Shown here piece by piece: positions 23,485-50,641 of a DNA stretch of 50,641 bases. The translations under genes were made by a program, and so were the position numbers. Every line of letters begins with the position of its first letter. The first letter of the stretch is position 1. A model generated the notes under the pieces. The model saw nothing but the letters and a program-made list of their open reading frames with translations, was not told the DNA's origin and searched no databases. The DNA comes from Clostridiales bacterium (GTDB taxonomy: Bacteria > Bacillota > Clostridia > Christensenellales > JAISNN01), in assembly GCA_031273825.1 (NCBI GenBank), contig JAISRB010000047.1, forward strand, positions 1 to 50,641, written 5' to 3'.

Positions 23485-23486
23485 GA

Positions 23487-23548: not shown

Positions 23549-23550
23549 TA

Positions 23551-23576: not shown

Positions 23577-23613
23577 GACTGGGGTTTAACCCGTCTGCTG
23601 TGTCTTTTTGGGG

Positions 23614-25475
<1,862 letters not shown>

Positions 25476-25661: not shown

Positions 25662-25958
25662 TTAGTTTTTATCTGTTTTTTCTTTTGTGGATCTTTCGGA
25701 TTCAAAATCGAAAAAGTCATCGTAGCCGTCCATAATTTTCGCTAAAGATAAATTCTTTTCGGCGGATTGCTCTACTAATGCCTTGTAACCTTCTTCTATA
25801 AGCTGTACCTTTGTAAAGCCGTACCCTTTCAGAAAGGCGTTAATCTCATCGGCTTTTTCTTTGGGTACGCTTGTTCCCCAAACGGCACTTTTGGCTTTTC
25901 GCTCGTTCCTATGCTTATCCTCATAACGCTTATCTTTTATAGCTCTCGTTTTTTTCAT
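25662..25958 (-). CDS. Hypothetical small DNA-binding (RHH-like) protein
   Basis: GGAGG SD; TTGACG-N18-TAAAAT upstream; WGTSVPKEKADEINAFLK..G.TKVQLI pattern. Confidence 0.55.
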   Translation of the reverse strand: MKKTRAIKDKRYEDKHRNERKAKSAVWGTSVPKEKADEINAFLKGYGFTKVQLIEEGYKALVEQSAEKNLSLAKIMDGYDDFFDFESERSTKEKTDKN

Positions 25959-26063
25959 TATATCCTCCGAAAATATTGCGTCGTATAAATACGATTGATT
26001 ATATTTTACACTATATGGGGCAATAGCGTCAAGCGGAATGGGATAGTTAAATAAATTATTCCG

Positions 26064-26258
26064 CTAATCCTTGCCACAATTATAACGGCTGTTGTTTTTC
26101 CGCGGGAGAATTTCTACGGATGCTTCTTTTTTCGGCTGCCGTTGCTCCCGTTCATGCTCGGCTTGCATTTCCTCCTCAATCTCTTTTAGGCGATTGCCGT
26201 AGGCTTTTGTTTCGGATAAAAACCATCTTAGAATACTACCAAACATATCGAATGACAT
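26064..26258 (-). CDS. Short ORF, probably the out-of-frame C-terminal part of the relaxase
   Basis: Overlaps the relaxase 3' end in another frame; no clear SD; coiled-coil-like content. Confidence 0.4.
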   Translation of the reverse strand: MSFDMFGSILRWFLSETKAYGNRLKEIEEEMQAEHEREQRQPKKEASVEILPRKNNSRYNCGKD

Positions 26259-31019: not shown

Positions 31020-31654
31020 AATCCTTCATCCTCAAGTACTCTGAATATATCAGGATGCTCTTCACGGTCTATAATATTCGACAACAAACCATCTACAAGA
31101 GCAAATTCAAATAAGATAAGTTCAAAGGAATTCGAACCTTTATTATCATTTTTGTCCGTTAATATCAAAAAATTATTATATATGTTGATTAGCGTTTTTT
31201 TGAATAATATCAAAAGGTCTATTAAATAAATTTTATTGAATCTTTCTGCATCACCGTAAAGCATTTCTAATAAATTATGACCTATTTCATCTCTAATTTT
31301 TTTGAGTTTAAAGTATTCCTTTTTGTCCTCTAAATTCATAAAGTCAAATAAAACCATGATATCAATTATGTCCGCTTTTTTTAGTGTTTTTTTATCGTTA
31401 AACATTTTTTTCAAGCTTGCTTTCATTATGGCTGCATAAACATCTACAGGCTCTTTTGTATCATAAGTTTTTTGCAGATTTCCGCCTATTCTATTACATA
31501 TAGTCAAATTAAATCTTTCAAAAACTGCAATAAAAGCGGCAGAAAAAACTGCGCTTTCAATCTTGTCATTATCTAAAAAACGGTTATCATTAATTTTCTG
31601 CCCTCTTATGGCAGCTAAACCTAACTTGTAGTTTGCAATTTTTTCTTGCTGCAT
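31016..31654 (-). CDS. AT-rich helical protein with HEPN-like Rx4H motif
   Basis: KIRDEIGHN motif; upstream ..VFERF helix; ATGA overlap with res. Confidence 0.6.
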   Translation of the reverse strand: MQQEKIANYKLGLAAIRGQKINDNRFLDNDKIESAVFSAAFIAVFERFNLTICNRIGGNLQKTYDTKEPVDVYAAIMKASLKKMFNDKKTLKKADIIDIMVLFDFMNLEDKKEYFKLKKIRDEIGHNLLEMLYGDAERFNKIYLIDLLILFKKTLINIYNNFLILTDKNDNKGSNSFELILFEFALVDGLLSNIIDREEHPDIFRVLEDEGL

Positions 31655-31655
31655 A

Positions 31656-33788
31656 TCAAAACAACCTCATTTCCTGTCCGGCTTTTTTTAGTATCTCGTC
31701 GCAGTTGGTCATGGCGTTGGTGTCGGTAAAGCACATATCCGCAAAGAAAAGCGTACCCGCGCCGACTGCCGACAAAGCCTCCATTTGCTCGATTGTTAAG
31801 TCGGGTTGCATACAAATCAAAACCTTGTATGCGTCCATGTTCTCGTCGCCCGCGTGCGTGATTATATGCGCCGCGGCGTTCGCCGCCGTAACTTCCTCTA
31901 CGGGTAAAGTTAGCGGTAAGCTGTATTTGAGCATAATCTCGTATACCAAATCAAGAGGCTTGCGGTCGGGCAGTAAATAATCGTAGTACGCAAACACTCT
32001 TTGCGCTAATGCCTCGTAGTCCCGCGTATAGCTGTTGTCCCATTTGCGTAGGTTGGACGCGTCAAGTTTGAATACCTTGAAGCCTGTATCTAAATTTTCA
32101 GACATTTCTTTATTTTTTTCATCATCTCCCCAATAAGCTATCGCCTTTTTGACGGTATGCGTTTTTCCATTTATAATCATATCTCTTCCGTCATCCAACA
32201 GTTTAGCTTTGCCGACCGTAATATCTTGTAACTCGGGCGTTCCGTGTTTTTGATAATATCTATAAATATCGCCATTCTCCAACAAAAAGTTTTTTATCTT
32301 TTCACCCGCACGGCGTATGCGTTCTTTGCCGATTTCGCAAAGGTTTTTATATCCTGCCTTATATGCCTCACTATTCCCGTCAGTTAATTCCGGCATTTGC
32401 ACGCAGATAAATTTGCGTTTGCCGCCGTCCTCCGCGTTTAATTGCATAACTGCGTGCGCCGTCGTGCCGCTCCCACTGAAAAAATCAAGAACTATGTCGT
32501 CGTTTGTCGTGCTAAATGCTATTAAAAATTTTAGCAACGAAATTGGCTTTGCATAATCAAAAGGTGCGACTTCAAAAAGCGAAATGAGATTCTTTTTGGC
32601 GTTATCGTTTGAGTATGCATTTTCAACAAACTCTAACGACAATAGAGGCTTTGTTCTTTCAATATAGCGAATTTCAAAACCGTTCGTGATTCTTTCTATT
32701 GAAGCGTTTTGATATGTTTTAGTATATATTCGGGAATAACCGTCGTATTCTTTTACCACTATAAAGCCATTCTTTAAGCCGAACTCGAACAACTCTTTAC
32801 TCCATCGCCACGCCCAATCTGCGCGGCTGTATTGTCCGCTTTTCCGTGCGTTGTATTTTTCAAGTGAGTTGCCGGGATAAAGGGTTTTGCCGTTAATTTC
32901 AATCGGATAATCCAAGCTTGGACTATATTGCAAACTGTCGTAGTCAAGCGTTTGGTTTAGCTTATATTTTCCCCTTGATTCGACAAATTCATCCTCAAAT
33001 TTAAAACCCTCGTCAGTATGGCTTTGTAAATTAAACCTCACACTTTCCGATTTTGAATATATCAAAATGTAATCATGGTTTGACGCTATTGCGTCTGTTG
33101 TTTTCCCCGCCTTTTTAGTGACTCGCGGTAGTATTCCTAAAAAGTTATACTCGCCGAACACCTCATCGCAAAGTTTCCGCAGGTTCGTAATCTCATTGTC
33201 GTCTATGCTTATAAAAATAACGCCGTCAGGCTTCAAAAGCACCCGTGCCAATTTCAACCTCGGCAACATCATGTTTAGCCAATTTGTGTGATACCGTCCT
33301 GCCGTTTCCGCATTACTTTTTGCCGTTGCGCCGATTATCTTTTTGTAGTTTTCTATGCAGTCGGCAAAGTCGTCTTTATATACAAAATCGTTGCCCGTGT
33401 TATACGGCGGGTCTATGTATATCATTTTAACGCGGTTCATATAGCTTCCCGAAAGGAGCTTGAGAACTTCCAAATTATCGCCCTCAATATAAAGGTTTTC
33501 CGTCGTGTCAAAATCCACGCTTTCCTCTCGGCAAGGGCGGAGCGTTCCCGTGCTGCGTTTTTGTGCAAGGCGTATCGCGTCCAATTTGCCCGCCCATGAA
33601 AAGCTGTACTTTTCGCGTGAGTCCTCGACGTATTCACCTAAACTATTTTGTAGCGCGTCAAAGTCAATTTTCCCGTCCTTAAACACCTCGGGGAAAACCG
33701 CCCTTAACTCCTCAACTCTTGCCGCCGCTAAGTCGGGCGTTTGTCCGTCTATTTTTTCATTTTGCGTTCTCCTTTTCAAGTAAATCAA
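31656..33788 (-). CDS. mod: Type III R-M Mod N6-adenine methyltransferase (start region frameshifted or ambiguous)
   Basis: IEGDNLEVLK, IYIDPPYNTG, FISIDDNE, KPISL, DFFSGSGTTAHA, LDTGFKVF. Confidence 0.93.
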   Translation of the reverse strand: MIYLKRRTQNEKIDGQTPDLAAARVEELRAVFPEVFKDGKIDFDALQNSLGEYVEDSREKYSFSWAGKLDAIRLAQKRSTGTLRPCREESVDFDTTENLYIEGDNLEVLKLLSGSYMNRVKMIYIDPPYNTGNDFVYKDDFADCIENYKKIIGATAKSNAETAGRYHTNWLNMMLPRLKLARVLLKPDGVIFISIDDNEITNLRKLCDEVFGEYNFLGILPRVTKKAGKTTDAIASNHDYILIYSKSESVRFNLQSHTDEGFKFEDEFVESRGKYKLNQTLDYDSLQYSPSLDYPIEINGKTLYPGNSLEKYNARKSGQYSRADWAWRWSKELFEFGLKNGFIVVKEYDGYSRIYTKTYQNASIERITNGFEIRYIERTKPLLSLEFVENAYSNDNAKKNLISLFEVAPFDYAKPISLLKFLIAFSTTNDDIVLDFFSGSGTTAHAVMQLNAEDGGKRKFICVQMPELTDGNSEAYKAGYKNLCEIGKERIRRAGEKIKNFLLENGDIYRYYQKHGTPELQDITVGKAKLLDDGRDMIINGKTHTVKKAIAYWGDDEKNKEMSENLDTGFKVFKLDASNLRKWDNSYTRDYEALAQRVFAYYDYLLPDRKPLDLVYEIMLKYSLPLTLPVEEVTAANAAAHIITHAGDENMDAYKVLICMQPDLTIEQMEALSAVGAGTLFFADMCFTDTNAMTNCDEILKKAGQEMRLF

Positions 33789-34209
33789 TTTTGCCTAAGT
33801 CGGCTTTCTTTTTGCTAATTAAAGTAATTACATATCCAAAAATGACAACGTAATTATTCATAGCGTTAAACATTTTGATGGAAAGCAAATAATCTAACGC
33901 AAACAGTACCACCATACACTTCAAAATGGTATAAATCGCAAACTGGAAGTTCAAACATTCAAGAAAGCCATATTTTTTTGTTTTGAATCGCTTACTTGTT
34001 AGCCATAACACTACAGCAGGCAGCAAGTAAATCAAAAGCCTATAAAGTATCAAAGATATATATTGCAATGCGCTTGTAACATTGCCGTCTTTTTCTAAGC
34101 TTTCCCATAGCGTTCCAGTATCTAATAAAGCGAAACTCAGCGTGATAATTGCAAACACGCCCATAATGATAGGCAACGCTATTAGAAATTTTATAAAAAC
34201 TTTTTTCAT
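33757..34209 (-). CDS. Hypothetical 4-TM membrane protein
   Basis: Four hydrophobic segments; TGATG and ATGA overlaps with its neighbours. Confidence 0.7.
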   Translation of the reverse strand: MKKVFIKFLIALPIIMGVFAIITLSFALLDTGTLWESLEKDGNVTSALQYISLILYRLLIYLLPAVVLWLTSKRFKTKKYGFLECLNFQFAIYTILKCMVVLFALDYLLSIKMFNAMNNYVVIFGYVITLISKKKADLGKIDLLEKENAK

Positions 34210-34583
34210 CAGCTTCCTTTCAATACCTTCAGCACTTTATCCCCAAAATCCTCTTGACAAATCCTTACGATTTCCTCGACAGCCTTTTTGACTTTTTCCT
34301 TAAACGCAGGGGGATAGCCGTTGTTTTTTTTCTTCCCCTCAACATACTCGCTATCGTAGTTATCTAAAAGGTCATTAACAATTTTTCGTGCTTGACTTTG
34401 TTTATTTCCGCTTAGCTTTTGATAAAGAGCTTGTAAAAAATTATTTAATGCTCCGTCACTAACATCTGCTTCATCGTTTAATTGCGAAAGCACCGCCATA
34501 ATTCTATCAAGTTTACTATTATCTTTTATCTTTGAAATTTCGTCGCAAATTCTTTCTCTAATTTCTTTTGATTCGTTACCCAT
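34209..34583 (-). CDS. Hypothetical helical protein (124 aa)
   Basis: GAGG SD; stop overlaps the start of the membrane gene. Confidence 0.7.
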   Translation of the reverse strand: MGNESKEIRERICDEISKIKDNSKLDRIMAVLSQLNDEADVSDGALNNFLQALYQKLSGNKQSQARKIVNDLLDNYDSEYVEGKKKNNGYPPAFKEKVKKAVEEIVRICQEDFGDKVLKVLKGS

Positions 34584-36076: not shown

Positions 36077-37438
36077 TTAATCGTTAATTATTTCCCAATA
36101 ACCGTCCTTATCCGAACCAATGCGTTTAATTAAGCCTTTTTCTTTTAAGGCTTTTATTGCGCGTTTGATAGTCCCGATGTCCTTTCCCAATCTTATGCAC
36201 ATTGCTTCCGATGTCAATGTTTTATCCTCTTTCAGCATTTCTAAAACGACGTTCTGTGTCTTCGATAATTTTACAGTGGCGTTTACAGTGGCATTTACAG
36301 TGGCGTTTTTGCTTGTTTCGTTAGGGGAAATCCTGAATACTGCAACGATATCCGAGCCGTTGTATCTGTAATCCACATCAGACTTGCCATCGGCGCGAAG
36401 TGCAAGGTTGATTCTTTCAATGCCGCGACCCCACGCCTCAATCATACCTGAGCGGAAAAAGGCGTTGGCAAGCAACGGATTGCGCGGCTTGGATTTGTGC
36501 TGACCTTTTAGGTCGTTGATAGTCCAGTCGTCGGGTAGTCTACCCTCGTTATCAATCTCTACCTTGTCGTCATAAATGCGGATTTGTATCGGATTGTTTG
36601 AATAATAGTCCTTGTGAATGATTGCATTAATAACAGCTTCGCGGAACGCGCTACGCGGAACGGGAAAGATTTCCACCCGTTGAATCCCTTCGTAGGTTAT
36701 CTTCTGCGTAAAATACTTTGAGTAGGTTACGTCCATAATTTTGTCCGGCAATGTAATAAGCGGTCCGCGAAACTCATCATGATACCTGATGTCATCCGTA
36801 ACATTTTGCCTTTCGCTTGTGATATATGCAATCTTAACGTAAGAGCCTAAGACCCAATATTCCGGATTTTCATGAAAAAGCAAGACGGCGGCGCGGTTAA
36901 GCGCACCATTTTTTTGAAGTAGCCCAAGACTCTCCAAAAGTGTTTTATCGCTAATTGCCAAATCGTCCTCAGTCAAGCGGGTGCTCGACAATGCCTTTTT
37001 CCGAAACAGCTTTATTGCATCAATATGCAAATCATCGACAGTTACATTGGGTAAAAGGAAGGAGTCCCATGTCTTTCCCTGAACGCGCAACAGAAAATCA
37101 TCCAAAGTTGCACCCGATAGCTCTTGTGTTGTGCTGCCGGAACGGTAATAATATTTCCCGCGGCAGCTTATCGCCTGACCGTAAGCGTTGACCGAAATAC
37201 GGATATAAGACAGCCCGTCCTCTTCGCGTAGCTCAACATCGGCAACAATTCCCAAAGCCTGCCGTATTTTATTCGGCAAATCCTCCAAGAGCTTTTTGGG
37301 ATTAGAAAGCCCGACAACCTTCCCTTTGTCATCCTTACCGATTTCAAGTGTCCCACCCTTAGTATTTGCAAAGGCGCACAAGGCTTTTAAAAACTCATCG
37401 TCCCACTGACGCTTGTATTCAATCGTTGGGCTTTCCAT
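36077..37438 (-). CDS. AlbA_2 (Schlafen-like) + HATPase_c_4 (RecG-C-like) + wHTH protein
   Basis: ES.TIEYK...AFANTKGGTL.IG..D, REAVINAIIHKDY, PRNPLLANAF...IEAWGRG, RIGSDKDGYW. Confidence 0.88.
   Translation of the reverse strand: MESPTIEYKRQWDDEFLKALCAFANTKGGTLEIGKDDKGKVVGLSNPKKLLEDLPNKIRQALGIVADVELREEDGLSYIRISVNAYGQAISCRGKYYYRSGSTTQELSGATLDDFLLRVQGKTWDSFLLPNVTVDDLHIDAIKLFRKKALSSTRLTEDDLAISDKTLLESLGLLQKNGALNRAAVLLFHENPEYWVLGSYVKIAYITSERQNVTDDIRYHDEFRGPLITLPDKIMDVTYSKYFTQKITYEGIQRVEIFPVPRSAFREAVINAIIHKDYYSNNPIQIRIYDDKVEIDNEGRLPDDWTINDLKGQHKSKPRNPLLANAFFRSGMIEAWGRGIERINLALRADGKSDVDYRYNGSDIVAVFRISPNETSKNATVNATVNATVKLSKTQNVVLEMLKEDKTLTSEAMCIRLGKDIGTIKRAIKALKEKGLIKRIGSDKDGYWEIIND
36270..36308. 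repeat. 12-bp in-frame tandem repeat x3 (NATV linker)
   Basis: tttacagtggcg tttacagtggca tttacagtggcg. Confidence 0.85.
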
Positions 37439-37776: not shown

Positions 37777-39276
37777 TCACTCCTCTTTTAATTTATATGT
37801 CGACATGCTGCGTTTGCCAAACTGGGTTGGATCTATTATTTGCATTTGTTTGAACACCGTTTCCCTCATGCGTTTTGCCGGTTGCAAACAATAGGTCATA
37901 AAGTCTTTACGAAAATCCTTATCTTGAATTAATTCACCGTCCGCATGTGGGAAAAATAACTTTAAATATGCAGTGCTCAAGCGCAAAACTGCTTCACTTT
38001 CTCTTTGATCTGCCCCCTGCCTTGTTTGCACTATCCGCTCAATGAGTCCGCGATAACGAAGTGTTTCAGCGGGAGCGCGGAGCAAATGCATTATTTCGGT
38101 AAAATACTCAGTATTAAGTGCCCAATCATTAATTATCATTGATTTAGTCAATGGCGGAATCCTTTGTCCGGGAATAAATCCATGTACGCGTTCTATTAAA
38201 GCTGCATCACGAAAAACCTCCGGCAATTCACGGAACATGTCTTTTGATGCATCCATATCATTTAGGTTTATATTTCCAAGCAAAATAATACCCGCATCAC
38301 CTTCGACTTTAACATTTGCGACATTGACAAATCCAAATTCCATATACCCCTTCAAAATACCTTGCATTTCCGAAGAATCTGGAAAACTAATCGATTTTAT
38401 TTCATCAACTGCAACGAAATCGTTGTACGTTACTATCCCAAATTTCTTAGATGAAATATCATAGAATAGTTTCGCGCGACTTAAGCTGCCGCCGCCCGCA
38501 AGCCAACCATACTTTCCAATATTCCCAAATATGTATGATTTTCCAGTTTGCTGAGGAGCTAGTTCAATAAGGTTAAGTCGCGGTTCGATAAATGGTAGTA
38601 GCCTTGTTAGCATTGTATGCTTTGCTTCCCAAATTTCGTTGGACAAAAGAGGTCTACCGCCAATCTGAGCCAATGCATATCCATCGGCATTATAGTCGAT
38701 AGCACCTAAAACAATATCCATCCATTCTTCCGTATCAAAGTGCTTTCTTGCTTCGCGGAAGGAATCAAGTTTTACAGTATAGGGGCAAAAATTCTTATAC
38801 TCAAGAAGAGTAAAGCGCCCGTTATTCTTATTTTCCTCAGGCGGCATATAACCAAGTTTAACTAATCCCCATCCTCCAGCACCGCCTATAAGTTCTCCCT
38901 TTATTCTTTCCCAGACATAATCTTCAATAATAGTCTGATTGTGCGAAAATCCAAGAACAGGGATTTCAAACGTATAATAATTAGCTCTTGAATTAAACAG
39001 TACATCAATCTTTGCCAAAAATTTTCTCGTTTCTCCATTTGAACGAGCGGCATCTTCGAGTTGTCCCTTTTCTTCACGACGTGGAATAACAATGCTAATA
39101 TATTTGCTCAACGCGTCTATATCACCGATACGACCGTCGCTGTCAGCTTTTTGTTTCAAGATCCAATCGCGTAAAAATGACGGTATCTTTGCGTTCTTAA
39201 ATACCGCAGTTATTGAAGGATCCTTAAAAACTGTCGTCGTTGGGAACAGTTTTCTTAATTTTATTGCATCGTACAT
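37777..39276 (-). CDS. brxL: BREX BrxL-like ATPase (short form without a Lon protease domain)
   Basis: LTRLLPFIE..NLIELAPQQTGKSY, AKLFYD, VAVDEI, LKGYME.G, LIERVHGFIPG. Confidence 0.88.
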   Translation of the reverse strand: MYDAIKLRKLFPTTTVFKDPSITAVFKNAKIPSFLRDWILKQKADSDGRIGDIDALSKYISIVIPRREEKGQLEDAARSNGETRKFLAKIDVLFNSRANYYTFEIPVLGFSHNQTIIEDYVWERIKGELIGGAGGWGLVKLGYMPPEENKNNGRFTLLEYKNFCPYTVKLDSFREARKHFDTEEWMDIVLGAIDYNADGYALAQIGGRPLLSNEIWEAKHTMLTRLLPFIEPRLNLIELAPQQTGKSYIFGNIGKYGWLAGGGSLSRAKLFYDISSKKFGIVTYNDFVAVDEIKSISFPDSSEMQGILKGYMEFGFVNVANVKVEGDAGIILLGNINLNDMDASKDMFRELPEVFRDAALIERVHGFIPGQRIPPLTKSMIINDWALNTEYFTEIMHLLRAPAETLRYRGLIERIVQTRQGADQRESEAVLRLSTAYLKLFFPHADGELIQDKDFRKDFMTYCLQPAKRMRETVFKQMQIIDPTQFGKRSMSTYKLKEE

Positions 39277-39288
39277 TGTTTTGCTCTC

Positions 39289-41376
39289 CTAAAAACTAAA
39301 TTCCACTTCTTCTATCAGTTGTTCACTCGGCTTTGAACGTTTCTTAATAATCGTATCCGTGAAAACCTTAGAGAAAACGATTATTGGGACAAGCCGTTCT
39401 TCAAGAGAAGCCCCACCGTGCAGTTCATTTTTTGGCGCACCCTGTTTAGACAAACGATTATAGCCGCGAATAATCCAATAAACACATTGGCGTTCAAGAT
39501 CGCGTTTTTCCTCAAAACCGTCAGGGCAAACCATCCCTTTTGAAGCTCTCGCGTAACGCCAGTCAAGTGGATTTTTTATCTCTTCATTTATTTTTGCCAA
39601 ATCATTTTCGTATGCGATTATTGCAAGCCTTGACGCCCCGTGATCTGCTGTCAATATTACGCGATCATATTGCATTAACGCCTTGACTACTCGAATAAGC
39701 ACACCTTCTAAAGCATCAAATACAGCAACAATATTCTGTTCGGGAGTGCAATGCTCATGTTTAACAGCACCATCGTGGACAATATCGTCGATCAATTTTG
39801 CCGGAGGAAGCCTATTAATTTTTATTGTTTTATCACCTATTTTATTGAAATCTGTTTCTGTAGGCAGGTTTGCTTCCGCGATATGAATTGATTTGATATT
39901 AATTTCTCTGCGACTAGCCACAGCGAAAATTGCAGGTATATACTCTACGCCCATCCCGTCAACAACAAGTATGGCTGATTTTTCATCTGTAGGCATTTCC
40001 GATAAGAGGACGTCTCTTTTTTGTATCAATGGGGGCAATAAAAAGTCGCCTGCGCTTTTTACAAAATCTTCTGTCACCGTGTTTTTCAGTTTAAATTTTC
40101 TATAATCGTCAAAATAATCATTAAGTTCTTTAATTCCAAAATCATATTCCATAGAGAGATAGTCATCCAACATGGGATATAATCCTTGCCACAAACAAGA
40201 TAACCCTGTTGTCAAATCGCTCATCGATACCCGTCGGACAATTTCTTGTTTTTCCGCCTTTGTTCCGCAGTTAAGCCAACAAGCAACAACATCATTTGTA
40301 TAAGAATTTGCGTTTTCAATAAACTCAACAATAAACGATTCGCCTTGCCCATTTAGTTCTTTTATGGCATCAGCACGTTCTTTGGCATATTTAATAGAAT
40401 TGATATCCCCAAAGACCATTAAGGGATAATCTGAAATATAGACACGTAAAATATTGTCGCAATTTAAATTTTCACTTAAAACTTTTGACATATATGAAGT
40501 GTTGTCTATCTCGTTTTTCAACATCCACACATACGCTATCCATAAATCATCGTTTGGCATTTCTTTTAGTCGTTTTAATGCAAAAATAGAATTAATGTTA
40601 ATTTCTCCAAACTGTTTTTTTAGAAACAGTTTTGGATGTAGTTTTGCACTTTTACTTTTTATTAATAAGCTCTCTATCGTACTTTGTGGCAAATCGGCTT
40701 TGATTTCGTAAAAATGTTCGGCTATACGTTTAACATCAGTATATTGCACGATTCCTTCTGATAGCCCTGCTTGACTTAAAGTAAAATCGCTCAAGGCAAG
40801 CGTAATGTCAATATGCTCGAAATTATCACCAGATTCAAAATTGCCGAGCATATCCAACAACTCAATCCAATTTCTACAATAGCTTTTATTTTCCACCCAT
40901 TTTTGTGACACAAGCCTTACCGTTGGCGGTAAAACAGGCTTGCCGTTTTCGGTAATATTAACTATTTGCAACGAGTTTTCATATTTCGGATTGCTAAATT
41001 GTTTTTTATCAAAGTTGCTTTTGCTAATCATATAAGCAGCATTGAGTTTTTGTTCGTCTATCCTTAACTGTAGTGCAACCATAAATGCATTTCTGCTTTG
41101 CCTACTTACTAATAATAAATATCCGTCAATTCCGATAACGACAACACGTCTATTTAGAGCATGAATCTTTTCATCTATTTCAATTATCAATTCACTAGGC
41201 GTTGGAAGCAAGTATGTATTGTCACTAATGCACTCTGATAAACTTAATATGTAGTCATTATTATTTTTGTGTTGCGCAAGTAATTTTGCTGCCATATCAT
41301 TGTCTGAATAGACTTCAACGCAAGTAGAATCGGTGACAATATATTGTAAATATTCATTAAGAGAATAGTTCATCAC
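39289..41376 (-). CDS. pglZ: BREX-4 PglZ alkaline-phosphatase-fold protein
   Basis: VVDGMGVEY, A.LPTET.FN, LTADHGASRL, HGGASLEERLVP. Confidence 0.9.
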   Translation of the reverse strand: MMNYSLNEYLQYIVTDSTCVEVYSDNDMAAKLLAQHKNNNDYILSLSECISDNTYLLPTPSELIIEIDEKIHALNRRVVVIGIDGYLLLVSRQSRNAFMVALQLRIDEQKLNAAYMISKSNFDKKQFSNPKYENSLQIVNITENGKPVLPPTVRLVSQKWVENKSYCRNWIELLDMLGNFESGDNFEHIDITLALSDFTLSQAGLSEGIVQYTDVKRIAEHFYEIKADLPQSTIESLLIKSKSAKLHPKLFLKKQFGEININSIFALKRLKEMPNDDLWIAYVWMLKNEIDNTSYMSKVLSENLNCDNILRVYISDYPLMVFGDINSIKYAKERADAIKELNGQGESFIVEFIENANSYTNDVVACWLNCGTKAEKQEIVRRVSMSDLTTGLSCLWQGLYPMLDDYLSMEYDFGIKELNDYFDDYRKFKLKNTVTEDFVKSAGDFLLPPLIQKRDVLLSEMPTDEKSAILVVDGMGVEYIPAIFAVASRREINIKSIHIAEANLPTETDFNKIGDKTIKINRLPPAKLIDDIVHDGAVKHEHCTPEQNIVAVFDALEGVLIRVVKALMQYDRVILTADHGASRLAIIAYENDLAKINEEIKNPLDWRYARASKGMVCPDGFEEKRDLERQCVYWIIRGYNRLSKQGAPKNELHGGASLEERLVPIIVFSKVFTDTIIKKRSKPSEQLIEEVEFSF

Positions 41377-44300
41377 TCATCCTCCAAAAATAATAAGCCT
41401 ATCTCGGCATTGTTTTGTACTGCTCTTATTAGTTTTTGTCTTAATTCTTCCACTGGGCACTTTTTAATTATTTCAATTGCTTGAGGAGCAAAGGTCAAGC
41501 CGTATTCGTTATGAATAAAAGCACTTATATCAGGTCTTGGTTGCCAGTTCCTTGGATTTCCATATTTGCCGCTAAGCTCGGTCAAAAGTGATGATAAACT
41601 AATATTAAGTTTAGAATATTTCTTTGGTACTGTTTCTGCAATAAAACTTTTTTGACAATCCGCCACGCTAATTGGAAGTAGGTTCTTTGTTGTTTCAAGC
41701 AACTCGCGAAGTTTAGAAGCTGAAAATTTTTCTGGCACTTCAACTGCATCAATTATATCACCCGATTCAACAATATTCCCTAACGCAAAACGCGCAGGTA
41801 TTTTATTATCTTTTTCCCATTTTAAAGGTGTTGCGGTGTCTGTTAAACGTTCCCATTCACGCTTTATTTCACATACGATAGACTGTTGTGCTTGTGCGTC
41901 GATGTGTTTTTGTATTTCTGCCCAAAATTCCGCCTCTTTCTCGTAATAAAAACTGCCCATGTCGTTGAGTACGCTCAACAATCCTGGTTCATCAATTGTT
42001 TTTTTATCCAGTCGGGAATATAATATCTCTAATGTTTTAGCCCGTTTACTATCAAAAAACAACCCTTTTATTATGTTAGCATTTTGAAACAAGGCATATT
42101 TTATTTCTTCGGTAGCACTGTTGTCGAAAATACTGTCCAAAAAAATGCCTATTGTTGGCAGAGCCGAAACTATTAGTATTTTAGGAAGTTTATTGGTTTG
42201 CGTAATCGCATTACGCAAGTTGTCTATTGTCGATTTGTAAGTTATAAAACCATCCACTCCTAGAATTTTTTGTGCAATTTTAATTACCTCATATTCTTGA
42301 ATAGTGTCATCTATCTCTCGACTAATATCTGCCTTATTCCATAGAAACCCCGCCGTTTCGCTCGATTTTGCCAACAGTATCCTACAGTAGTCATGCGAAA
42401 CATCTCCAACCTCCTCGGCTAGTTTTTTCAAAGGTAAAGCTATTTTATCAACATATGCCCAAAAAGCATCTTGCGAGTTTTCCGGCTTTACATATTTGGC
42501 AACTAGTTGGACAAGTGAATCGTTTTTGCATATTTGCTTTCCGACTTCTTTAATGAAATTTGAACGTTCTTCAACATTGCCCTTTGCACTTGTGCTACCA
42601 GCGCGACAAATTTTATTTAGTACATCGCTAATCTGTATTGCAAATCCTTCTTCCCTATTCTGGACATATTCTGCAAACACCCATAAGGGAACGCGACCAA
42701 AATCTTTTTCAATACGACCCTGTATTCTCAATAAGGTTTTTTCTACTGTGTCATCCCCGCTTGGATTTGCGAAACCAAACATTAGTGAGGCTTTCTCAAT
42801 AAATACCTTTTCGTCATCTGAAAGTCGACAAATTAATTTTTCATGAAAACTTTTGCTTTGCAAATTGTCTTTTATTGCATTTTCAATGATCTCGGCTAAC
42901 TCAGTTTTGGTTAATGGATTTGTCATTTGAAGATTTGTCCACTGATAATTGCTTTCCAACAAATATCTTAGCGTAAAACCCAATGCAAACGCACTAAGCG
43001 CATTAAATTTCAATCCAAACGGCGCACGTTGAAGTTCTCTAAATACTTGTTTAATTGATAGATTAGCACCTTTTTCAACGGTACTTATTATTTTTTTATT
43101 AATTATTGCACGAATCTGCGCAAACGGATGCTCCGGATTTTGTCTGAACCAATCATTGCTCTCATTAATTCCTTGTTCCTTTAATGCTGCCACGACAGCA
43201 CCGTGTTGGGGTGTTTCCGGAATAAAATTAATCCCCGAAAGTGCCCATGATTTAAAACCCCTTGTGTCGAAAGCGGCAATTTGTGATACTATAAAATCGG
43301 GACAATATTTAAGGTTCTTACGGATATAGTTTTCAAGTAAACTTTTAATTAAACCCCACAAAACGCTATCATTGATAACTTTTCCGTCTTTGTAAGAATA
43401 TACTTTTATCAACGTGTCAGGATTTTTGATTCTCTCCAGCCATGATTTTTCTATTTGTTCAAGAGCAACTTTGCGGCGTTTTTTTGCTTCATCGCCGTTT
43501 TCAAGTACCCATTGCGCGTAATAATAAACATATTCGTCCCATTGTTCGGCATTGTTTTCACAAAATGATGTTTCTGGAAATGCGAACATTAGAATACGAT
43601 GATCATGCAATTGAGACAAAATTTTATCTATATTACCAGGTATATGTAATTGCTCGCTTTTATTCTTAGCGATTATGAACCACAGGCATGTAGCCCCGTT
43701 ATCTTTTTCTCGCCCATATCCGTAATTTTCTCTTGTTGCCGCAGGAAAATCACTTAGAGTCGCTTTGCCTATATCGGAAACACGAACATCAAATCTTCCT
43801 TGTGAAAAACTTGAAAATGTTTTTTTCAATTTTTCTTCTATTGTTTTTTTGCACGCATCCGAAAGCAACTCATCAAACTTGTTATTATATTCTTCCGCTT
43901 TTGTCCGTGCGTCCTGTCCTCCAACTGATGATGTAAATAATTCAATATTTTCGTTAATGATATTAAAACAGTGTTTTCTCTCAAGCTCTTTTAGTATGCC
44001 GGCAACATTGACTATCGCGCTATCGCCTTGAAAAGATAATACAATATTTTGAATTGTCGGCCGAAGGCGCTCATGTCCGTTGGGCTGCAGCCTTGAGAGC
44101 AGGCAAAACAATAACGCAGTCTTTAAGACGCGAATTTCCTCATCATCAGAATCTCTATTGCGAAACTCGCGATTTTTTATGCGCTCAAATTCATTCCGGA
44201 TGGATGTAATCTCCTTACTGATTCCCAAATCGTTGCGCTCAATAAAATACTTCCACAAATAATCTACGGTTAAAAACTGCTTGCCCGAGATAGTGGGACC

Positions 44301-45560
44301 ACCGGTCTTGATAAAATCTTGAAACTCGCGACCATTTGCGCTACCCTTAAGATACTCAAATATGCTACGTTGATTAGATTGAGCCGATTCGGCTAAAACT
44401 TTTAGCAAAAAAGCCGCCATCGGATGAATAGGTAAAATATTATAGAATGAGTCCTTGCTTATATCGTCATCACTAAAATTTACTTCAGTAATACCTCTGA
44501 CGTCACTCCACAATAAGTCTTTCTCTTTTTTCCACTCTTCTGCTATTTCAAAATTATCCGTTTGGGGAATTATTGCGGTTGCAGCAAGTTTAAATGCTGT
44601 ATCATTTGGCATTTGCAACTTGCAAAAATAGAACCTCTCATTGGCTTTAAGCGCACTATCTGAGCCTTCGGCCAAATAAGCATCAATATTCATGTGAGTT
44701 ACTGGCACTAAGAAAAATTTATTTGTCTGCGGGGCTTCAGTTACTTCTTCAAAAGTTTTTAAATCTCCGCGATTGCGATCAATAAAGTTAGCAAATTCGT
44801 CAAATACATAAACAATACGTTTCAACTTATTTGCTATTAAAATTGCGTTCACCCATTTACGAAAGGCCGGCACGCGAATGTCTAAATAAATGTTATCTCT
44901 GTGGAGTACCTTTTGCACTTCCATTAACAAATTATTTGGCGTACTCTTTATTTTTTCACTTTGCAATAAGCTAACAAGCTGATCAATGGTCTTTATTACC
45001 GGTTTTAATTCAGATAATTCACTCTGAATACTGTCGCGCATTTTGAAAAAATTTTGTCCTTCACGATGCAAGCGTTTAATAATTTCGTCTAAATTTGCTT
45101 TGGGCGGCACGATCATCTTCCTTGCTTTTAACTCGTCGACAATTCCTTTTTCTAAACGAACAAGAAAATCCGCATCCGAACCCATACCAGAAGCATTGTA
45201 ATCATATACTACTAGCGTTTCGTAGCGCCTGATATTAAGTTGCGTAAAAAGAGTGGAGTTGCAATCCAGAATTCTTTTATATTTTTCAAACCATTTTTTT
45301 ACACGCTCCTCATCGTCAGAAAATAATTTTTGCGTAACGAGAGCAGCGTGACTTTTTCCAGTACCAAGGTTTCCTGTAAGCCATATAGATTTATGCCCAC
45401 CGTTTATCGTCTCAAGAAGCGTTGAAAAAAATTCCACAAACTTTTCGTGGGGATAGAAATCCAGCCACGTGTCAACTGTTTCGTTTATGGTTTCACGAGT
45501 CATGTTGGGTCTATATCTCTCATTTATCTTAAAAAAATCAGAATAATGCCGTTTTTCCAT
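41373..45560 (-). CDS. brxC: BREX BrxC-like large P-loop ATPase
   Basis: Walker A GNLGTGKS, Walker B VYVFDEF, LPIHP and NQRSIF motifs; located between brxP and pglZ. Confidence 0.85.
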   Translation of the reverse strand: MEKRHYSDFFKINERYRPNMTRETINETVDTWLDFYPHEKFVEFFSTLLETINGGHKSIWLTGNLGTGKSHAALVTQKLFSDDEERVKKWFEKYKRILDCNSTLFTQLNIRRYETLVVYDYNASGMGSDADFLVRLEKGIVDELKARKMIVPPKANLDEIIKRLHREGQNFFKMRDSIQSELSELKPVIKTIDQLVSLLQSEKIKSTPNNLLMEVQKVLHRDNIYLDIRVPAFRKWVNAILIANKLKRIVYVFDEFANFIDRNRGDLKTFEEVTEAPQTNKFFLVPVTHMNIDAYLAEGSDSALKANERFYFCKLQMPNDTAFKLAATAIIPQTDNFEIAEEWKKEKDLLWSDVRGITEVNFSDDDISKDSFYNILPIHPMAAFLLKVLAESAQSNQRSIFEYLKGSANGREFQDFIKTGGPTISGKQFLTVDYLWKYFIERNDLGISKEITSIRNEFERIKNREFRNRDSDDEEIRVLKTALLFCLLSRLQPNGHERLRPTIQNIVLSFQGDSAIVNVAGILKELERKHCFNIINENIELFTSSVGGQDARTKAEEYNNKFDELLSDACKKTIEEKLKKTFSSFSQGRFDVRVSDIGKATLSDFPAATRENYGYGREKDNGATCLWFIIAKNKSEQLHIPGNIDKILSQLHDHRILMFAFPETSFCENNAEQWDEYVYYYAQWVLENGDEAKKRRKVALEQIEKSWLERIKNPDTLIKVYSYKDGKVINDSVLWGLIKSLLENYIRKNLKYCPDFIVSQIAAFDTRGFKSWALSGINFIPETPQHGAVVAALKEQGINESNDWFRQNPEHPFAQIRAIINKKIISTVEKGANLSIKQVFRELQRAPFGLKFNALSAFALGFTLRYLLESNYQWTNLQMTNPLTKTELAEIIENAIKDNLQSKSFHEKLICRLSDDEKVFIEKASLMFGFANPSGDDTVEKTLLRIQGRIEKDFGRVPLWVFAEYVQNREEGFAIQISDVLNKICRAGSTSAKGNVEERSNFIKEVGKQICKNDSLVQLVAKYVKPENSQDAFWAYVDKIALPLKKLAEEVGDVSHDYCRILLAKSSETAGFLWNKADISREIDDTIQEYEVIKIAQKILGVDGFITYKSTIDNLRNAITQTNKLPKILIVSALPTIGIFLDSIFDNSATEEIKYALFQNANIIKGLFFDSKRAKTLEILYSRLDKKTIDEPGLLSVLNDMGSFYYEKEAEFWAEIQKHIDAQAQQSIVCEIKREWERLTDTATPLKWEKDNKIPARFALGNIVESGDIIDAVEVPEKFSASKLRELLETTKNLLPISVADCQKSFIAETVPKKYSKLNISLSSLLTELSGKYGNPRNWQPRPDISAFIHNEYGLTFAPQAIEIIKKCPVEELRQKLIRAVQNNAEIGLLFLEDE

Positions 45561-45562
45561 GT

Positions 45563-47941
45563 TTATTTCTCCTCTATTGCAACAGCGATAACATCAATTA
45601 TTGAATATTTGTCGGGAAAGATTGTTAGCTCATCATTTCCATGTGTAAAGACCGTTTCTATCATCTTTGGAAATCGAGTTCTTAATCCTTCGCACTGTTG
45701 CTTGAAAGTTATAGGCGATAGTCCAAATGCCGCAATGGGGGATACATAGAACGAATCAATATCCGCAGTAATCAATTCTCTAATGGTAAAGCTACTTCGC
45801 CCTGTTTGCTCTGCAATTAGATACAATCCATATAATATTGTTAACGGGTCAACCGTTTTAGCTTTACGAGTTATACTTTCAACATTTTTACCTTTCATTT
45901 CGACGCAAGTAACAGCATTTTCTCCGCCAAGAGGTGATTTAGTCAGCATATCTTTTAAAGCTGCAAGACCGCCTTCAATGGTGGATTGCCCTAGGTTAGG
46001 GTTGCTCTCATTCAATAACAAATGTAGTCTTTCTACCGAATTTTCAATGTCCACTGTTGTTGCCGTAATGAACCATTTAACAAGAATTGAACGGTTGACT
46101 ATAGCCATCCAAATAAACTCCCATCCCAACGAATTAAATGTTCCTTTTTGCCTAAATAAATCAACAAGTTGCGTAGGCTTTTTGTCATGCTCATTAATCA
46201 AGCCCGCTTGAATAAACCAATTGCGTGCAGACTCAACCATTTTGTTCCCAAGCGGATGATTGACATGCCAAGGGAAAAATCTATCTCCTAATTCAACAAG
46301 TGCTGACACCCAAAGGTATTTGTCTTTTTCTCGAAGACCAAAATTTTTATAAGTATTTATACTTACCATTGCCGATTTGGATTTTTCAGGCAATCTCATA
46401 GACATATACCTCCAACATGAGTTATCAATATCGTAACATTTATGGCACTTGATGCATTTTTCAGCATCAATTTTTAGTTTTCCATTCTTAATTCCAATGG
46501 CGCCTGCTTTGCATTGCGCCTCACAGCTTCTGCAAGCAATGCATGCTGCCGCTTTTTTCATAAATGCAATTAATATCGACATCATTGCCACTCTTTCAGT
46601 GACGCTGCGAAAATCAAACGACACCTGCCCGCCACCGCCCTCAAGAGAGTTGTAAGAAAAGGGAATTCCGTCATCTAATGTATTTGGTAATTTTAGTCGC
46701 GTTTGTACACTTCCAGCTTCGAATACTACCTCTCCGATTGTTTTTATCCATTCAAAAAACAAATCTTTTGAAAAATATGGACTATGAAATGTTGCCGACA
46801 TGCCGTCATGTGTTATTGTAGGACTAGAAATCGTTTCTTTCAAAACTACTCCGCTTTTTCGCGCTTGCCAATTAAGACTTCCTACATAATCAATTTTATC
46901 TTGAACAGTTTTAAAGTTTTTGTTGCTTGTATTGATAACGACTTTATTGTACGGTGTCAAAAGACCAGGGTAAACACTCTCCACAAACCATTCATATTTT
47001 GCTGATGACTCCGGGCATAGCAAGCATCCAACACGCGTGAATCCTTTTTTGTACGCTTCATTGATTAATAAATTATTTGCAAAAACATACAACCACAACT
47101 CATGTGCGCCCCAATCAAGTAACGGCATACAATTAAATTGCGATGCATTTTTCACTTCATCGGCATTATCCTCATACATAGAGCGGCTATGACTTTCCTC
47201 GCCTCTTACACCAACAAATGCAGTTAATTTTACATAAGGTTTGCGTAGTTTTTCTTTCAAAAGAATAAGTGCAGGCGCACTTTTATGGACGGAACAACAC
47301 CATCTTATTGTCCTTGAAGGCGGACCGAAATCCTTCCAATTTTCAAGAGCCGGTGCTTTAGCCATAGCCTTATAAAACACTCTATCGGAATAACGTTCTT
47401 GGATTTCTTCCCAAACACTATAGGTGTCCGGTAGCTCCATGTCCGTATCGCTAAAAACAACAGGCGCAGATAACGGCAAAACCTTATGACATATATCAAG
47501 TAGCACTACCGAATCCTTGCCGCCTGAAAAAGCGATATATGCCAAATCGCTTTGCCCGATTCGGCTATCGAATAGTTCTTTTACTCGGCGTTTTGTATCG
47601 ATAATAAGAAGGCTCATAATATCGGCATTATTCTCTATCATTGCAGCAATATCAATTGACTCAAGCTTGCGCTTTCCTTTAAAATAGAATTCTGGCGATA
47701 ATGGTTTGCCATATTGCGTGTTATTAATTTGTGCGACTTTTTCACCATCCACAAAATACATATTTTTTTGCGCCCAAAGTAGAGGGCGTTTTTCGTTATG
47801 ATCGAACTCAAAACGCTTGTGCAAACCAGTAATCAACAATTCCTGTGCGAAAACAGGGCGCACTTCATTTGCAATAAACCGTGCCGATTGAGTTGTCAAC
47901 ACGTAACCGTGTGTTGTTTTATCCCAAACATATGAATACAT
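45563..47941 (-). CDS. brxP: BrxP: PAPS-reductase-family + 4Fe-4S ferredoxin + DUF4007-like domains
   Basis: FSGGKDS PP-loop, RWCCSVHK, GVRGEES, RVGCLLCP, CIACRSCEAQC/CIKCHKC, LGNKMVES..NWF..AGL. Confidence 0.9.
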   Translation of the reverse strand: MYSYVWDKTTHGYVLTTQSARFIANEVRPVFAQELLITGLHKRFEFDHNEKRPLLWAQKNMYFVDGEKVAQINNTQYGKPLSPEFYFKGKRKLESIDIAAMIENNADIMSLLIIDTKRRVKELFDSRIGQSDLAYIAFSGGKDSVVLLDICHKVLPLSAPVVFSDTDMELPDTYSVWEEIQERYSDRVFYKAMAKAPALENWKDFGPPSRTIRWCCSVHKSAPALILLKEKLRKPYVKLTAFVGVRGEESHSRSMYEDNADEVKNASQFNCMPLLDWGAHELWLYVFANNLLINEAYKKGFTRVGCLLCPESSAKYEWFVESVYPGLLTPYNKVVINTSNKNFKTVQDKIDYVGSLNWQARKSGVVLKETISSPTITHDGMSATFHSPYFSKDLFFEWIKTIGEVVFEAGSVQTRLKLPNTLDDGIPFSYNSLEGGGGQVSFDFRSVTERVAMMSILIAFMKKAAACIACRSCEAQCKAGAIGIKNGKLKIDAEKCIKCHKCYDIDNSCWRYMSMRLPEKSKSAMVSINTYKNFGLREKDKYLWVSALVELGDRFFPWHVNHPLGNKMVESARNWFIQAGLINEHDKKPTQLVDLFRQKGTFNSLGWEFIWMAIVNRSILVKWFITATTVDIENSVERLHLLLNESNPNLGQSTIEGGLAALKDMLTKSPLGGENAVTCVEMKGKNVESITRKAKTVDPLTILYGLYLIAEQTGRSSFTIRELITADIDSFYVSPIAAFGLSPITFKQQCEGLRTRFPKMIETVFTHGNDELTIFPDKYSIIDVIAVAIEEK

Positions 47942-47942
47942 A

Positions 47943-50192
47943 CTAACTTGATACCTCCGTATAAATTCCGCCCTTCCATTCGCGTTTAGAAGTATCTTTG
48001 TAATATAATACTATCAATTGTCTAAAAGTTTTGTTATCTGGAATACCATACTCTTTTTTAAAATTATTCCCCATTTCGGAGCTAAGTAAAGTATGCAAAA
48101 TATCTTCTGTCGGCACTAGTTCAAGATATGTAATGCGGTTAAGCACTCGAGAAAGAACCTCAGAAAAATCATTTGGTATGTTCAGCGCCGCCAATGTTAC
48201 ATAGCAAGGAATATTACCTATTTCGGTTCTAATAATATCGTTGGCGTAATCCTTAATAACACCTTCAATTAATTCAGACGAAAAAGCGTTTAGTTGTTCA
48301 CAGATATCCCATTCACTCGCATATCCACCGGATTTAGCGATTATTTCATATGTCTTTTTGATAACTTTGCTAAACACTTCATCTGATTTTACATTTTGTG
48401 ATCGAGCCAGTCTTTTGCCGCTCTTTCCTAAAAAGCGAACCTTTTCTCTATTAATAAAATCATAAAACGATTCAAAGTCATCAACGTTTCTGATAATTTT
48501 TTTATTTAAACAACTCTCAAACAAAGTTAATAATACTTGAAGTTCAAAGGCATCGTATTCGGCAAGAAAATTATCCGCCTTACTTACAATTTTTTCTCTT
48601 GTTTGGGGCGTAGCTATTGAATCAAGCAAAAAATATAAATCATCCTTGCGGCGATATAATACACTTTTCATGGTTTTTTGCATAGCAGAATCAATTGTAA
48701 TTCCAGATTTGTCTATGAGCAACCTGATAGCTGTAGCATCGAATTTAAATCCGTTATAGTAATTCTGTTTTAGTGCTTCGGTTATCGACTCTGGCAAGGA
48801 TAATTGAGCATTATTAGAATCATTTTCTTTTGTTTGTGGCTCTAATTTTTTTTGGAACATTATCTCAATGTCGGACAAATTTTCGCCGCAGAAAGCAAGC
48901 ACTCGCTTGCATTTTGCCATGATTTGCTTCGTGCTACATTGAGTTTCTATAAACAGTCCATTGGTTAGCTTGCAAGGACTATATAATCCTTCCTGACTAT
49001 TTTTTTGTCCGATAACATTCGCCTTCGGGTAATTTTTGTTAGCATACTCGTATATATATCTTAAAACATCTTTCCATGATTTGACCAAAACTTCTCCGCT
49101 TAGTTTCGTTTTAATTACTGTGGGTTTCGTGTCGGTAAAATCATTTTCTCCATTCCATTTCCATACACTTTCCACTGTGTCGGCATTGTCGGCAACTTGC
49201 CTTTTCTGCACGTTATTTAGATTATCTTTGCTTAAAAATAAATAAAATTCTTTAATCGATTCGATGTATGCGTTGTGCATAACCTTATTTGATGCAATAA
49301 AGTTTCCATTGCCCTTGATTAAGCTATAAAAATATTGCAGTCCCAATATCGCATTTGCCTGATTCTTTGCCGCTGCCCAATCTTTTGAGAAGTTTTTAAC
49401 GATGAAATTCATCGCGTCACGATAACTTCTTGCCGTAGCCTCAGCTTTACCTTGCTGAATTATCCAAGTCTGGAAATTAATCGCTATTCTGTCATTCCAA
49501 TCAAGCAAAACAGCATTTTCTGTTTTGGATGCTTTTTCGTTTAAAGAGGATTCAAAATCCGAAAGGGCAAACTTGTTTTTACCGTCAACAATTACTACCT
49601 TAAACTTTTTATTAGAGTGTTTATCGTCACATTCGATAAGGCAATTACTCTTAATCGTATTATAAACAACACTTAATGGCTGAACCGCGCCAAACTGATA
49701 AAGTCCCTTATCAATAATTTCATGGTATATTTCTCGCGTGAAAAGAGGTTGCTTATTTTTAAGCACTTCCACGATTGCATCCGCTATCGTTCTTTTTTTA
49801 GGTAACGTTTGAATCATCGTGCTTTTCTTTGCAGTATTTTCGCTCATATCTGATAATTCTGGCAATTTTAACAAATCCTCACCAAGACCCAACTTGGATA
49901 AACGTTCGCCCTGCTCTTTTAAAAAACGAAAGTATAGCTTTCCGCATTTTTTAAAAACAGTATACGTTTTACCACCAAGATGATGGCGAAAAATGTTGTC
50001 GCTTAAAAGTCTTGAACAAATTTTATTAAACGCGAAATGATCGGTTATTTCAAAAAAATAAACTTTGGCTATTTTTTTTGACAAAGCATATTCCGATACT
50101 TCCTCTAAATTTGCAATGCAAGCGGCAGGACTATACTTTTTCGTATTCCCCACATTAAGCCATGTCAAAAATTGAAGCTTTGTATCTGTCAT
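47943..50192 (-). CDS. Multidomain putative DNA-binding protein (HARE-HTH-like, SeqA-like and repeated helical modules); first gene of the BREX-4 operon
   Basis: TIADAIVEVLK...TREIY.EI...GLY.F....P...V (HARE-HTH pattern); FTDTKP...GE..VKSWKDVL...LTNGLFIET pattern; 1-nt gap to brxP. Confidence 0.7.
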   Translation of the reverse strand: MTDTKLQFLTWLNVGNTKKYSPAACIANLEEVSEYALSKKIAKVYFFEITDHFAFNKICSRLLSDNIFRHHLGGKTYTVFKKCGKLYFRFLKEQGERLSKLGLGEDLLKLPELSDMSENTAKKSTMIQTLPKKRTIADAIVEVLKNKQPLFTREIYHEIIDKGLYQFGAVQPLSVVYNTIKSNCLIECDDKHSNKKFKVVIVDGKNKFALSDFESSLNEKASKTENAVLLDWNDRIAINFQTWIIQQGKAEATARSYRDAMNFIVKNFSKDWAAAKNQANAILGLQYFYSLIKGNGNFIASNKVMHNAYIESIKEFYLFLSKDNLNNVQKRQVADNADTVESVWKWNGENDFTDTKPTVIKTKLSGEVLVKSWKDVLRYIYEYANKNYPKANVIGQKNSQEGLYSPCKLTNGLFIETQCSTKQIMAKCKRVLAFCGENLSDIEIMFQKKLEPQTKENDSNNAQLSLPESITEALKQNYYNGFKFDATAIRLLIDKSGITIDSAMQKTMKSVLYRRKDDLYFLLDSIATPQTREKIVSKADNFLAEYDAFELQVLLTLFESCLNKKIIRNVDDFESFYDFINREKVRFLGKSGKRLARSQNVKSDEVFSKVIKKTYEIIAKSGGYASEWDICEQLNAFSSELIEGVIKDYANDIIRTEIGNIPCYVTLAALNIPNDFSEVLSRVLNRITYLELVPTEDILHTLLSSEMGNNFKKEYGIPDNKTFRQLIVLYYKDTSKREWKGGIYTEVSS

Positions 50193-50208: not shown

Positions 50209-50399
50209 CTATCTGTTTACGTTGTCGTGGTTTTGCTCTTTTACCAAATAGTCTACTTCATGGATATAAAACGCCATTTTTTGCCTGCCAGATGTCCCGG
50301 GAAGCCTTTATTTTTTATGACCCTTGTGAGCGTATCGCGTCTAACGTCAAGATGCTCGGCGATTTCGTCCATTGTATGTCATTTTATTGCTTTGCCCAT
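50209..50399 (-). pseudogene. Excisionase-like HTH_17 regulator remnant
   Basis: MGKAIK*HTMDEIAEHLDVRRDTLTRVIKNKGFPGHLAGKKWRF, then a frameshift into IHEVDYLVK; TGA at codon 7. Confidence 0.72.
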
Positions 50400-50431: not shown

Positions 50432-50461
50432 ATTATACACTATTGCGACGGTTTTTGTCAA
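50432..50461 (-). promoter_or_regulatory. SigA-type promoter of the BREX-4 operon
   Basis: TTGACA-N18-TATAAT on minus strand. Confidence 0.7.
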
Positions 50462-50499: not shown

Positions 50500-50641
50500 T
50501 AGATTGTAAATTAAATTGTCGTACCTTTTCAAATAATCTTATAGTTCATTTTATTAGGTTATTTTCTCATACAGGTCGTTAGGCGAGTATCCGTCTAACA
50601 GCTTGCGGGGGTAGTTGTTCATATAGCGTTCTATTCGCGCT
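50500..50641 (-). mobile_element. IS30-family element end: transposase C-terminus (50554-50640) and probable terminal IR near 50503-50525
   Basis: ARIERYMNNYPRKLLDGYSPNDLYEKIT* matches the IS30 N..PRK.L...P C-terminal motif; ...AATTTAATTTACAAT IS30-like end. Confidence 0.75.

Follow-up and report, generated by a model that had tools for sequence, protein, structure and literature searches.

In the 50,641-nucleotide stretch of DNA analyzed here, contig JAISRB010000047.1 of a Clostridiales bacterium (NCBI GenBank assembly GCA_031273825.1; hereafter the window), the first large gene of a type 4 bacteriophage exclusion (BREX-4) operon is an open reading frame (ORF) of 749 amino acids (P0001; 47943–50192, minus strand). 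Because the C-terminal tail of its product directly precedes brxP in relatives from several phyla, this gene appears to be an additional type 4 BREX component that had not been described before. A preliminary description of the window had presented the gene, with its strand unstated, as a single chain heading BREX-4 that would encode a non-catalytic sensor or adaptor for modified DNA, or else a regulator. The ORF bears out the single chain, and the interpretation as a whole is partly supported: the protein appears to be a non-catalytic, putatively DNA-binding BREX-4 component, but its conserved function resides in its tail, and the reading of modified DNA is conjectural. Its placement at the head of BREX-4 is correct because PADLOC names the next four genes BrxP, BrxC, PglZ and BrxL. 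These four genes constitute a complete type 4 set, brxP-brxC-pglZ-brxL, contiguous at 37777–47941 on the minus strand: brxP (45563–47941; PADLOC BrxP, 1.4e-217), of the PAPS-reductase type with an iron-sulfur part and a DUF4007-like tail; the ATPase gene brxC/pglY (41373–45560; PADLOC BrxC, 2e-249); pglZ (39289–41376; PADLOC PglZ, 9.8e-81); and brxL (37777–39276; PADLOC BrxL, 2.2e-178, together with Pfam BrxL domains). In BrxP, Pfam detects the PAPS-reductase and 4Fe-4S regions, and the PADLOC model PDLC02511 detects the DUF4007-like module at 529–682. The TAG stop codon of the 749-residue gene occupies 47945–47943, and a single base separates it from the ATG of brxP at 47941; because of this one-base gap, the protein would be produced together with BrxP. 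No PADLOC, NCBIfam or PHROGs family was assigned to it at the thresholds used, and hence no listed BREX component model matched.

The position of the gene directly before brxP is kept in 36 of 37 evaluable loci, pooled across several phyla. Among species-representative genomes, for which the scan was built on a 9-sequence alignment, all six loci carry it immediately before brxP-brxC(-pglZ); they come from metagenome-assembled genomes of Bacillota, Treponema, Planctomycetaceae, Deltaproteobacteria and Oscillospiraceae, and from Heliophilum fasciatum. The last of these is the contig of G115. Among 401 sampled genomes of the phylum, G115 and the window's own genome were the only ones matched by the tail profile, and in G115 a 463-residue tail protein overlaps the start of brxP-brxC. 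Metagenomes were scanned with a degenerate DNA pattern for a conserved motif, which returned 49 stretches, 14 of them chance matches and 35 encoding the tail. Five of these 35 end at a contig edge; in the remaining 30, evaluable because they have at least 400 bp downstream, brxP is the next gene in 29, typically 0–7 bases away. The sole metagenome exception (L074) is a remnant consisting of a lone truncated tail. Other decayed copies include a frameshifted tail gene (L096) and a locus with a truncated brxP and no brxC (L061). In viral contigs, the 53 pattern matches yielded no relatives. These counts bear directly on the possibility that the gene is unrelated cargo of a mobile element and merely adjoins BREX-4. 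Such an origin would agree with the location of the island on an integrative element that encodes two serine recombinases as well as a MobL relaxase, and with the finding that none of 60 related genomes contains a homolog of the protein. However, it is contradicted by the synteny across phyla and was rejected as very improbable.

The 749-residue protein is not an orphan. A HMMER scan of 1.84 billion representatives produced 398 matches at E ≤ 1e-3, 102 of them at E ≤ 1e-30, and a word-indexed homolog search returned one relative (P0002). When the best 150 relatives were mapped onto the protein, its C-terminal ~285 residues proved common to the family, while residues 1–460 are represented in pieces that come and go; a profile of the C-terminal part matches 131 of the 151 proteins in the set. 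Gene lengths range from 295 to 826 amino acids, and the architectures seen, with C for the tail and A, M and HARE for the modules that form its heads, are C alone, M-C, A-C, A-M-C, A-HARE-C, M-HARE-C and M-M-M-C. The tail may therefore be preceded by anything from no head at all, in genes that are nonetheless complete, to three copies of M. Head complements differ even where the tails are closely similar, as in the pairs L059 (A-M-C) and L095 (A-A-M-C), L068 and L102, and L092 and L093, with C-domain identities of 91.8%, 88.9% and 81.6%, respectively. It is the tail, not the heads, that links the protein to BREX-4. Further variants on this theme are a single protein with three tandem M modules (L086:1316–3553, plus strand), one with a McrB N-terminal DNA-binding domain (1.1e-52) ahead of the same tail (P0023), and one in which the tail follows an extracytoplasmic function (ECF)-like sigma factor with regions 2 and 4 (P0140). 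Structural neighbors in the ESM Atlas bear the cluster labels Sigma70_r4 or RNA_pol_A_CTD.

The preliminary description had left the ~280-residue C-terminus unassigned. It is now recognized as a confidently modeled array of four tandem winged-helix units that carries the conserved function, and is referred to here as the C-domain, the conserved BREX-4-linked module (residues 462–749; 47946–48809, minus strand). The AlphaFold2 model of residues 455–749, computed with a 49-sequence alignment, reached a predicted local distance difference test (pLDDT) score of 94.9 and a predicted template modeling (pTM) score of 0.86, and consists of a helix-turn-helix (HTH)-like unit followed by three helix-plus-hairpin units. 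Foldseek matches at E ≤ 1e-3 were limited to two UFL1/DDRGK1 chimera chains (2.7e-5 and 2.9e-5) and SelB WH1-4 (6.5e-5), with ESCRT-II next in the list at 1.1e-3, and the template modeling scores of the best matches are only 0.25–0.31. The domain is acidic, with an isoelectric point (pI) of 5.8 in the window and a family median of 5.03 (range 4.4–7.1 over 49 sequences), whereas the four heads of the window protein are basic (pI 9.4, 8.9, 8.9 and 9.0, in order from the N-terminus). From this charge split we infer a division of labor in which the basic heads would bind DNA and the acidic tail would dock on proteins. A prediction of the complex between BrxP residues 1–718 and C-domain residues 468–749 scored 0.00, which is evidence neither way. 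Fold searches of the models returned no enzyme fold and no Walker A motif is present in the protein, in agreement with the earlier statements that it is non-catalytic and has no PD-(D/E)xK, HNH or Walker motif. Two loose nuclease-like regular-expression matches were rejected since they involve non-conserved residues within helical or winged-helix regions, and the 'PD...ExK'-like string at residues 718–740 was likewise dismissed as a nuclease motif, since it forms a winged-helix wing and the family consensus does not preserve its Glu.

The N-terminal half is modeled as a set of well-folded beads along a flexible string, with a pLDDT of 85.6 and a pTM of 0.42 for residues 1–465 (AlphaFold2). The borders in the two models (helical A, 4–107; winged helix, 136–210; helical A', 223–338; alpha/beta M, 339–449; C-terminal domain, 468–749) agree with the modules delimited in the preliminary description, and residues 109–129 form a disordered linker. 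All heads are encoded on the minus strand. Module A (residues 1–105; 49878–50192) is a basic helical domain, modeled with a pLDDT of about 95, that is present in 40 related sequences. It is followed by a winged helix of the HARE-HTH type (residues 132–216; 49545–49799), by the helical module A' (residues 224–338; 49179–49523), which appears to resemble the integrase N-terminal SAM-like (core-binding) domain, and by module M (residues 339–455; 48828–49178), an alpha/beta domain without a Pfam family that is the commonest head across the family. Foldseek with the 465-residue N-terminal model gave no match at E ≤ 1e-3, and PDB sequences searched by phmmer and by profile, with the entire protein, its C-domain or module M as the query, contained nothing below E 0.03.

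The domain readings proposed earlier for these heads fared unequally. The HARE-HTH-like segment corresponds to the sole Pfam match of the window protein, PF05066 at residues 134–184, which at 19.3 bits (E 0.0015) lies below the 25.9-bit cut-off; the assignment nevertheless gains from the model, which has the winged helix-turn-helix fold expected of HARE-HTH, and from the 8 of 69 Pfam-scanned relatives that pass the cut-off at the equivalent position (27.6–93.2 bits). As for the second A-like module, A and A' probably share one fold, because the regions recovered by their iterated profiles coincide and hhalign gives an end-to-end alignment of the two, if a weak one (probability 37%, E 3.5e-4, 87 columns), although a pairwise BLAST comparison of the two showed no significant similarity. 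The proposed likeness of M to SeqA has a structural match as its sole support: the SeqA family PF03925 matched none of 20 M modules at E ≤ 10 in Pfam, hhalign of M against Escherichia coli SeqA gave a probability of 0.2%, and an M profile run against PDB sequences found no SeqA.

A second type of tail occurs in another branch of BREX-4. In the 401-genome sample, the BrxP model has 16 near-full-length places in 15 genomes, and 14 loci have readable upstream sequence (13 retrieved loci, G115 and the window, less G322, which ends at a contig edge; G187 was left out). A C-type gene stands upstream in two of these, the window and G115, and seven have an upstream gene of 702–987 amino acids with a ~450-residue tail, named C2. 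The C2 gene adjoins brxP in six of the seven; in G283:C52, a 238-residue ORF without a Pfam family (L037:6162–6878, plus strand) lies between them and overlaps the brxP start. Elsewhere, the position ahead of brxP is occupied by a full sigma-70 paralog of 493 amino acids with regions 1.1 to 4 (G355; L041:10627–12108, minus strand), a fragment of such a paralog beside a decayed brxP (G407; L046:10390–11031, minus strand) or a 120-residue LuxR-type HTH protein (G446), and in G331 and G283:C38 the large gene before brxP is absent. The two loci with sigma-70 paralogs belong to two genomes of one genus and have no adjoining primase gene. Judged by profile comparison, C2 is homologous to C: hhalign aligns 210 columns, covering the first three units, with a probability of 96.7% (E 4.5e-10), and the C2 hidden Markov model also matches C-type proteins, down to 3.9e-14. 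Heads are shared as well, since module A is common to the window protein and three C2 proteins, one of which also has HARE-HTH; two other C2 proteins (G075 and G283) contain sigma-70 region 4. BrxP is 59–65% identical to that of the window at C-type loci and 28–33% identical at the others, and therefore the tail type tracks the operon branch.

The explanation favored here, with moderate confidence, is that the gene encodes a fifth BREX-4 subunit or adaptor. As such, it would be a non-enzymatic component of one branch of the phosphorothioate-type (type 4) BREX, in which the acidic four-winged-helix tail would couple the protein to the BrxP-BrxC-PglZ-BrxL machinery, and the optional and rapidly exchanged basic heads, here two putatively integrase-SAM-like modules, one HARE-HTH and one M, would tether or aim this machinery on DNA. 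Several considerations weigh against this explanation. The component is not universal, because 2 of the 14 loci are without a large upstream gene and 3 have just a sigma-70-like or LuxR-type HTH protein, which also means that the slot can go to transcription-type proteins. Synteny cannot separate a subunit from a dedicated regulator, because operon neighbors are co-inherited whatever their function. Moreover, the tail is found fused to sigma-70 regions 2 and 4 or region 4 (P0140; G075 and G283) and, according to the ESM Atlas labels, to the C-terminal domain (CTD) of the RNA polymerase alpha subunit, so that a role in transcription also fits. Binding of the protein to BREX proteins or to DNA is something we infer. 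The metagenome and genome scans used the conserved motif, and so they mainly cover the subfamily to which the window protein belongs rather than the gene neighborhoods of remoter homologs among the 398.

The main rival is accordingly a dedicated transcription regulator of the operon, similar to BrxR in function, whose modules would bind the operon's own control region while the tail would sense a signal or contact RNA polymerase; this is a less probable explanation, but one to be taken seriously. It draws on the fact that HTH and winged-helix modules make up the entire protein, on the sigma-70 and LuxR-type proteins that occupy the same slot or share the tail elsewhere, and on the location of its gene behind a sigma-70-type promoter-like site (50432–50461, minus strand; TTGACA, 18 nucleotides, TATAAT; 12/12 consensus), which by consensus match is the candidate promoter of the operon. 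However, proteins of the lengths seen in this family would be very large for repressors, their conserved part is acidic, and the swapping or absence of heads among close relatives, with the operon unchanged, is hard to square with a single conserved operator. The close spacing between its stop codon and the brxP start rather points to coordinated synthesis with an enzyme subunit. In addition, the window already contains a separate small ORF upstream, between the promoter-like site and the 749-residue gene (39 amino acids; 50253–50372, minus strand), with a putatively excisionase/HTH_17-like sequence. This ORF ends just after 'KKWRF', and the continuation typical of such proteins is open in another frame to about 50209; the interruption suggests either a frameshift or a mistake in the assembly. 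A stretch related to it is present at one other locus (L070). The BrxR proteins themselves, WYL regulators beside type 1 BREX, are likewise HTH-containing and encoded at the head of their locus, and the WYL domain is their mark. In contrast, the 749-residue protein far exceeds them in size, its heads vary and its gene closely abuts brxP, and Pfam scans at E ≤ 10 found no WYL domain in it, for which reason an identity with WYL-type BrxR was rejected. A type 4 'brxR regulator' is called non-essential, and is not described, in the available text of PMC12914056.

A more far-reaching extension of the favored subunit, and a rather speculative one, is that the C/C2 tail is the docking hub of a swappable-sensor subunit, whose heads would read the state of the DNA or of the transcription machinery and thereby license restriction by PglZ/BrxL. 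The heads (HARE-HTH, SAM-like, M, McrB-N, sigma region 4 and RNA polymerase alpha-CTD) could then sense DNA that is unmodified or phage-modified, or promoter DNA with polymerase bound to it. If this is true, such a subunit would make the self/non-self decision in type 4 BREX and would evolve by head exchange, like the specificity subunits of type I restriction systems. That type 4 BREX phosphorothioates DNA was shown only in 2026, and how it discriminates self from foreign DNA and restricts are treated as open questions (PMC12914056; PMC12839542). In addition to the five components already known for type 4, the second of these lists, from 457 taxa, a cysteine desulfurase and a small zinc-finger protein; no mention of the gene upstream of brxP was found in the text consulted, although its figures or supplements may show it (PMC12839542). 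A conserved, unlisted and non-enzymatic gene coupled to brxP, whose product keeps its acidic tail while its putatively DNA-binding heads change quickly, is an obvious candidate for the targeting, sensing or control step that is missing. The two related domains defined here, C and C2, are without models in Pfam, NCBIfam and PADLOC, and current defense-system finders therefore miss a recurrent BREX-4 gene.

The remainder of the window contains further defense and mobility genes, all on the minus strand. Two large serine recombinases (with Resolvase, Recombinase, zinc ribbon and DUF4368 domains) and the MobL relaxase, at 20900–27114, stand between core genes (dnaG-sigA, lacZ, dnaB, glgA) and the defense genes, and the whole defense block is probably the cargo of an integrative mobilizable element. 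This block includes a type III restriction-modification pair at 28044–33788 (PADLOC Mod, 3e-181; Res, 7.7e-267), with a 212-residue ORF without an assigned family (31016–31654) separating mod from res. A 453-residue protein (36077–37438) that combines Schlafen AlbA_2 and HATPase_c_4 domains with a MarR-type winged helix at its C-terminus is encoded between the type III system and brxL, and is followed by two small ORFs without an assigned family (33757–34583). At the other end, the contig terminates within the 3' end of an ORF (50555–50641), whose last residues presumably belong to a transposase or integrase tail.

Several known protein families share parts of this architecture. The HARE-HTH domain (PF05066), whose binding of modified DNA is reportedly a prediction made by Aravind and Iyer in 2012, is here one optional head among several. 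Strings of winged helices like that of the tail are also found in the C-terminal WH1-4 of SelB (1lva), in UFL1/DDRGK1 (8b9x) and in ESCRT-II (3cuq), where they largely serve as protein or RNA docking scaffolds. Identity with these proteins is 10–13% and the arrangement of the units differs, so that no functional link is implied.

In type 1 BREX, brxA is the first gene, as the 749-residue gene is here. This parallel has a bearing on another explanation, in which the tail would be a DNA-scanning unit like BrxA, DUF4007 or SspB that helps to choose or present the sites for phosphorothioation by BrxP-BrxC. BrxA is a three-module protein, HTH-winged HTH (wHTH)-wHTH, which is equated with DUF4007 in PMC12839542, and the tail similarly consists of an HTH-like unit and then winged helices. 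SspB (6juf_A) does appear in the Foldseek list of the C-domain, though at rank 50 (E 0.13, probability 0.15), and neither BrxA nor DUF4007 structures appeared in the fold lists. Comparisons of C and C2 with BrxP, including its DUF4007-like tail, gave hhalign probabilities of 0.3% each, and the tail is accordingly not a detectable paralog of this BrxP module. Furthermore, a clone of brxP-mcrA-brxC (genes 02791–02793) suffices for the native phosphorothioate pattern in Bacteroides thetaiotaomicron, the source strain being one that may or may not carry C/C2 (PMC12914056). With the tail acidic family-wide and a DUF4007-like module already present in the window's BrxP, a scanning unit of this kind is unlikely. 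What the tail seems to have in common with BrxA (DUF1819) and DUF4007/SspB is that it belongs to a BREX component of small to medium size, is non-enzymatic and combines an HTH-like unit with winged helices. However, it differs from BrxA in having four units instead of three, in being acidic and in carrying swappable N-terminal heads, and from DUF4007 in that the 749-residue protein occurs in addition to the module that is fused to BrxP.

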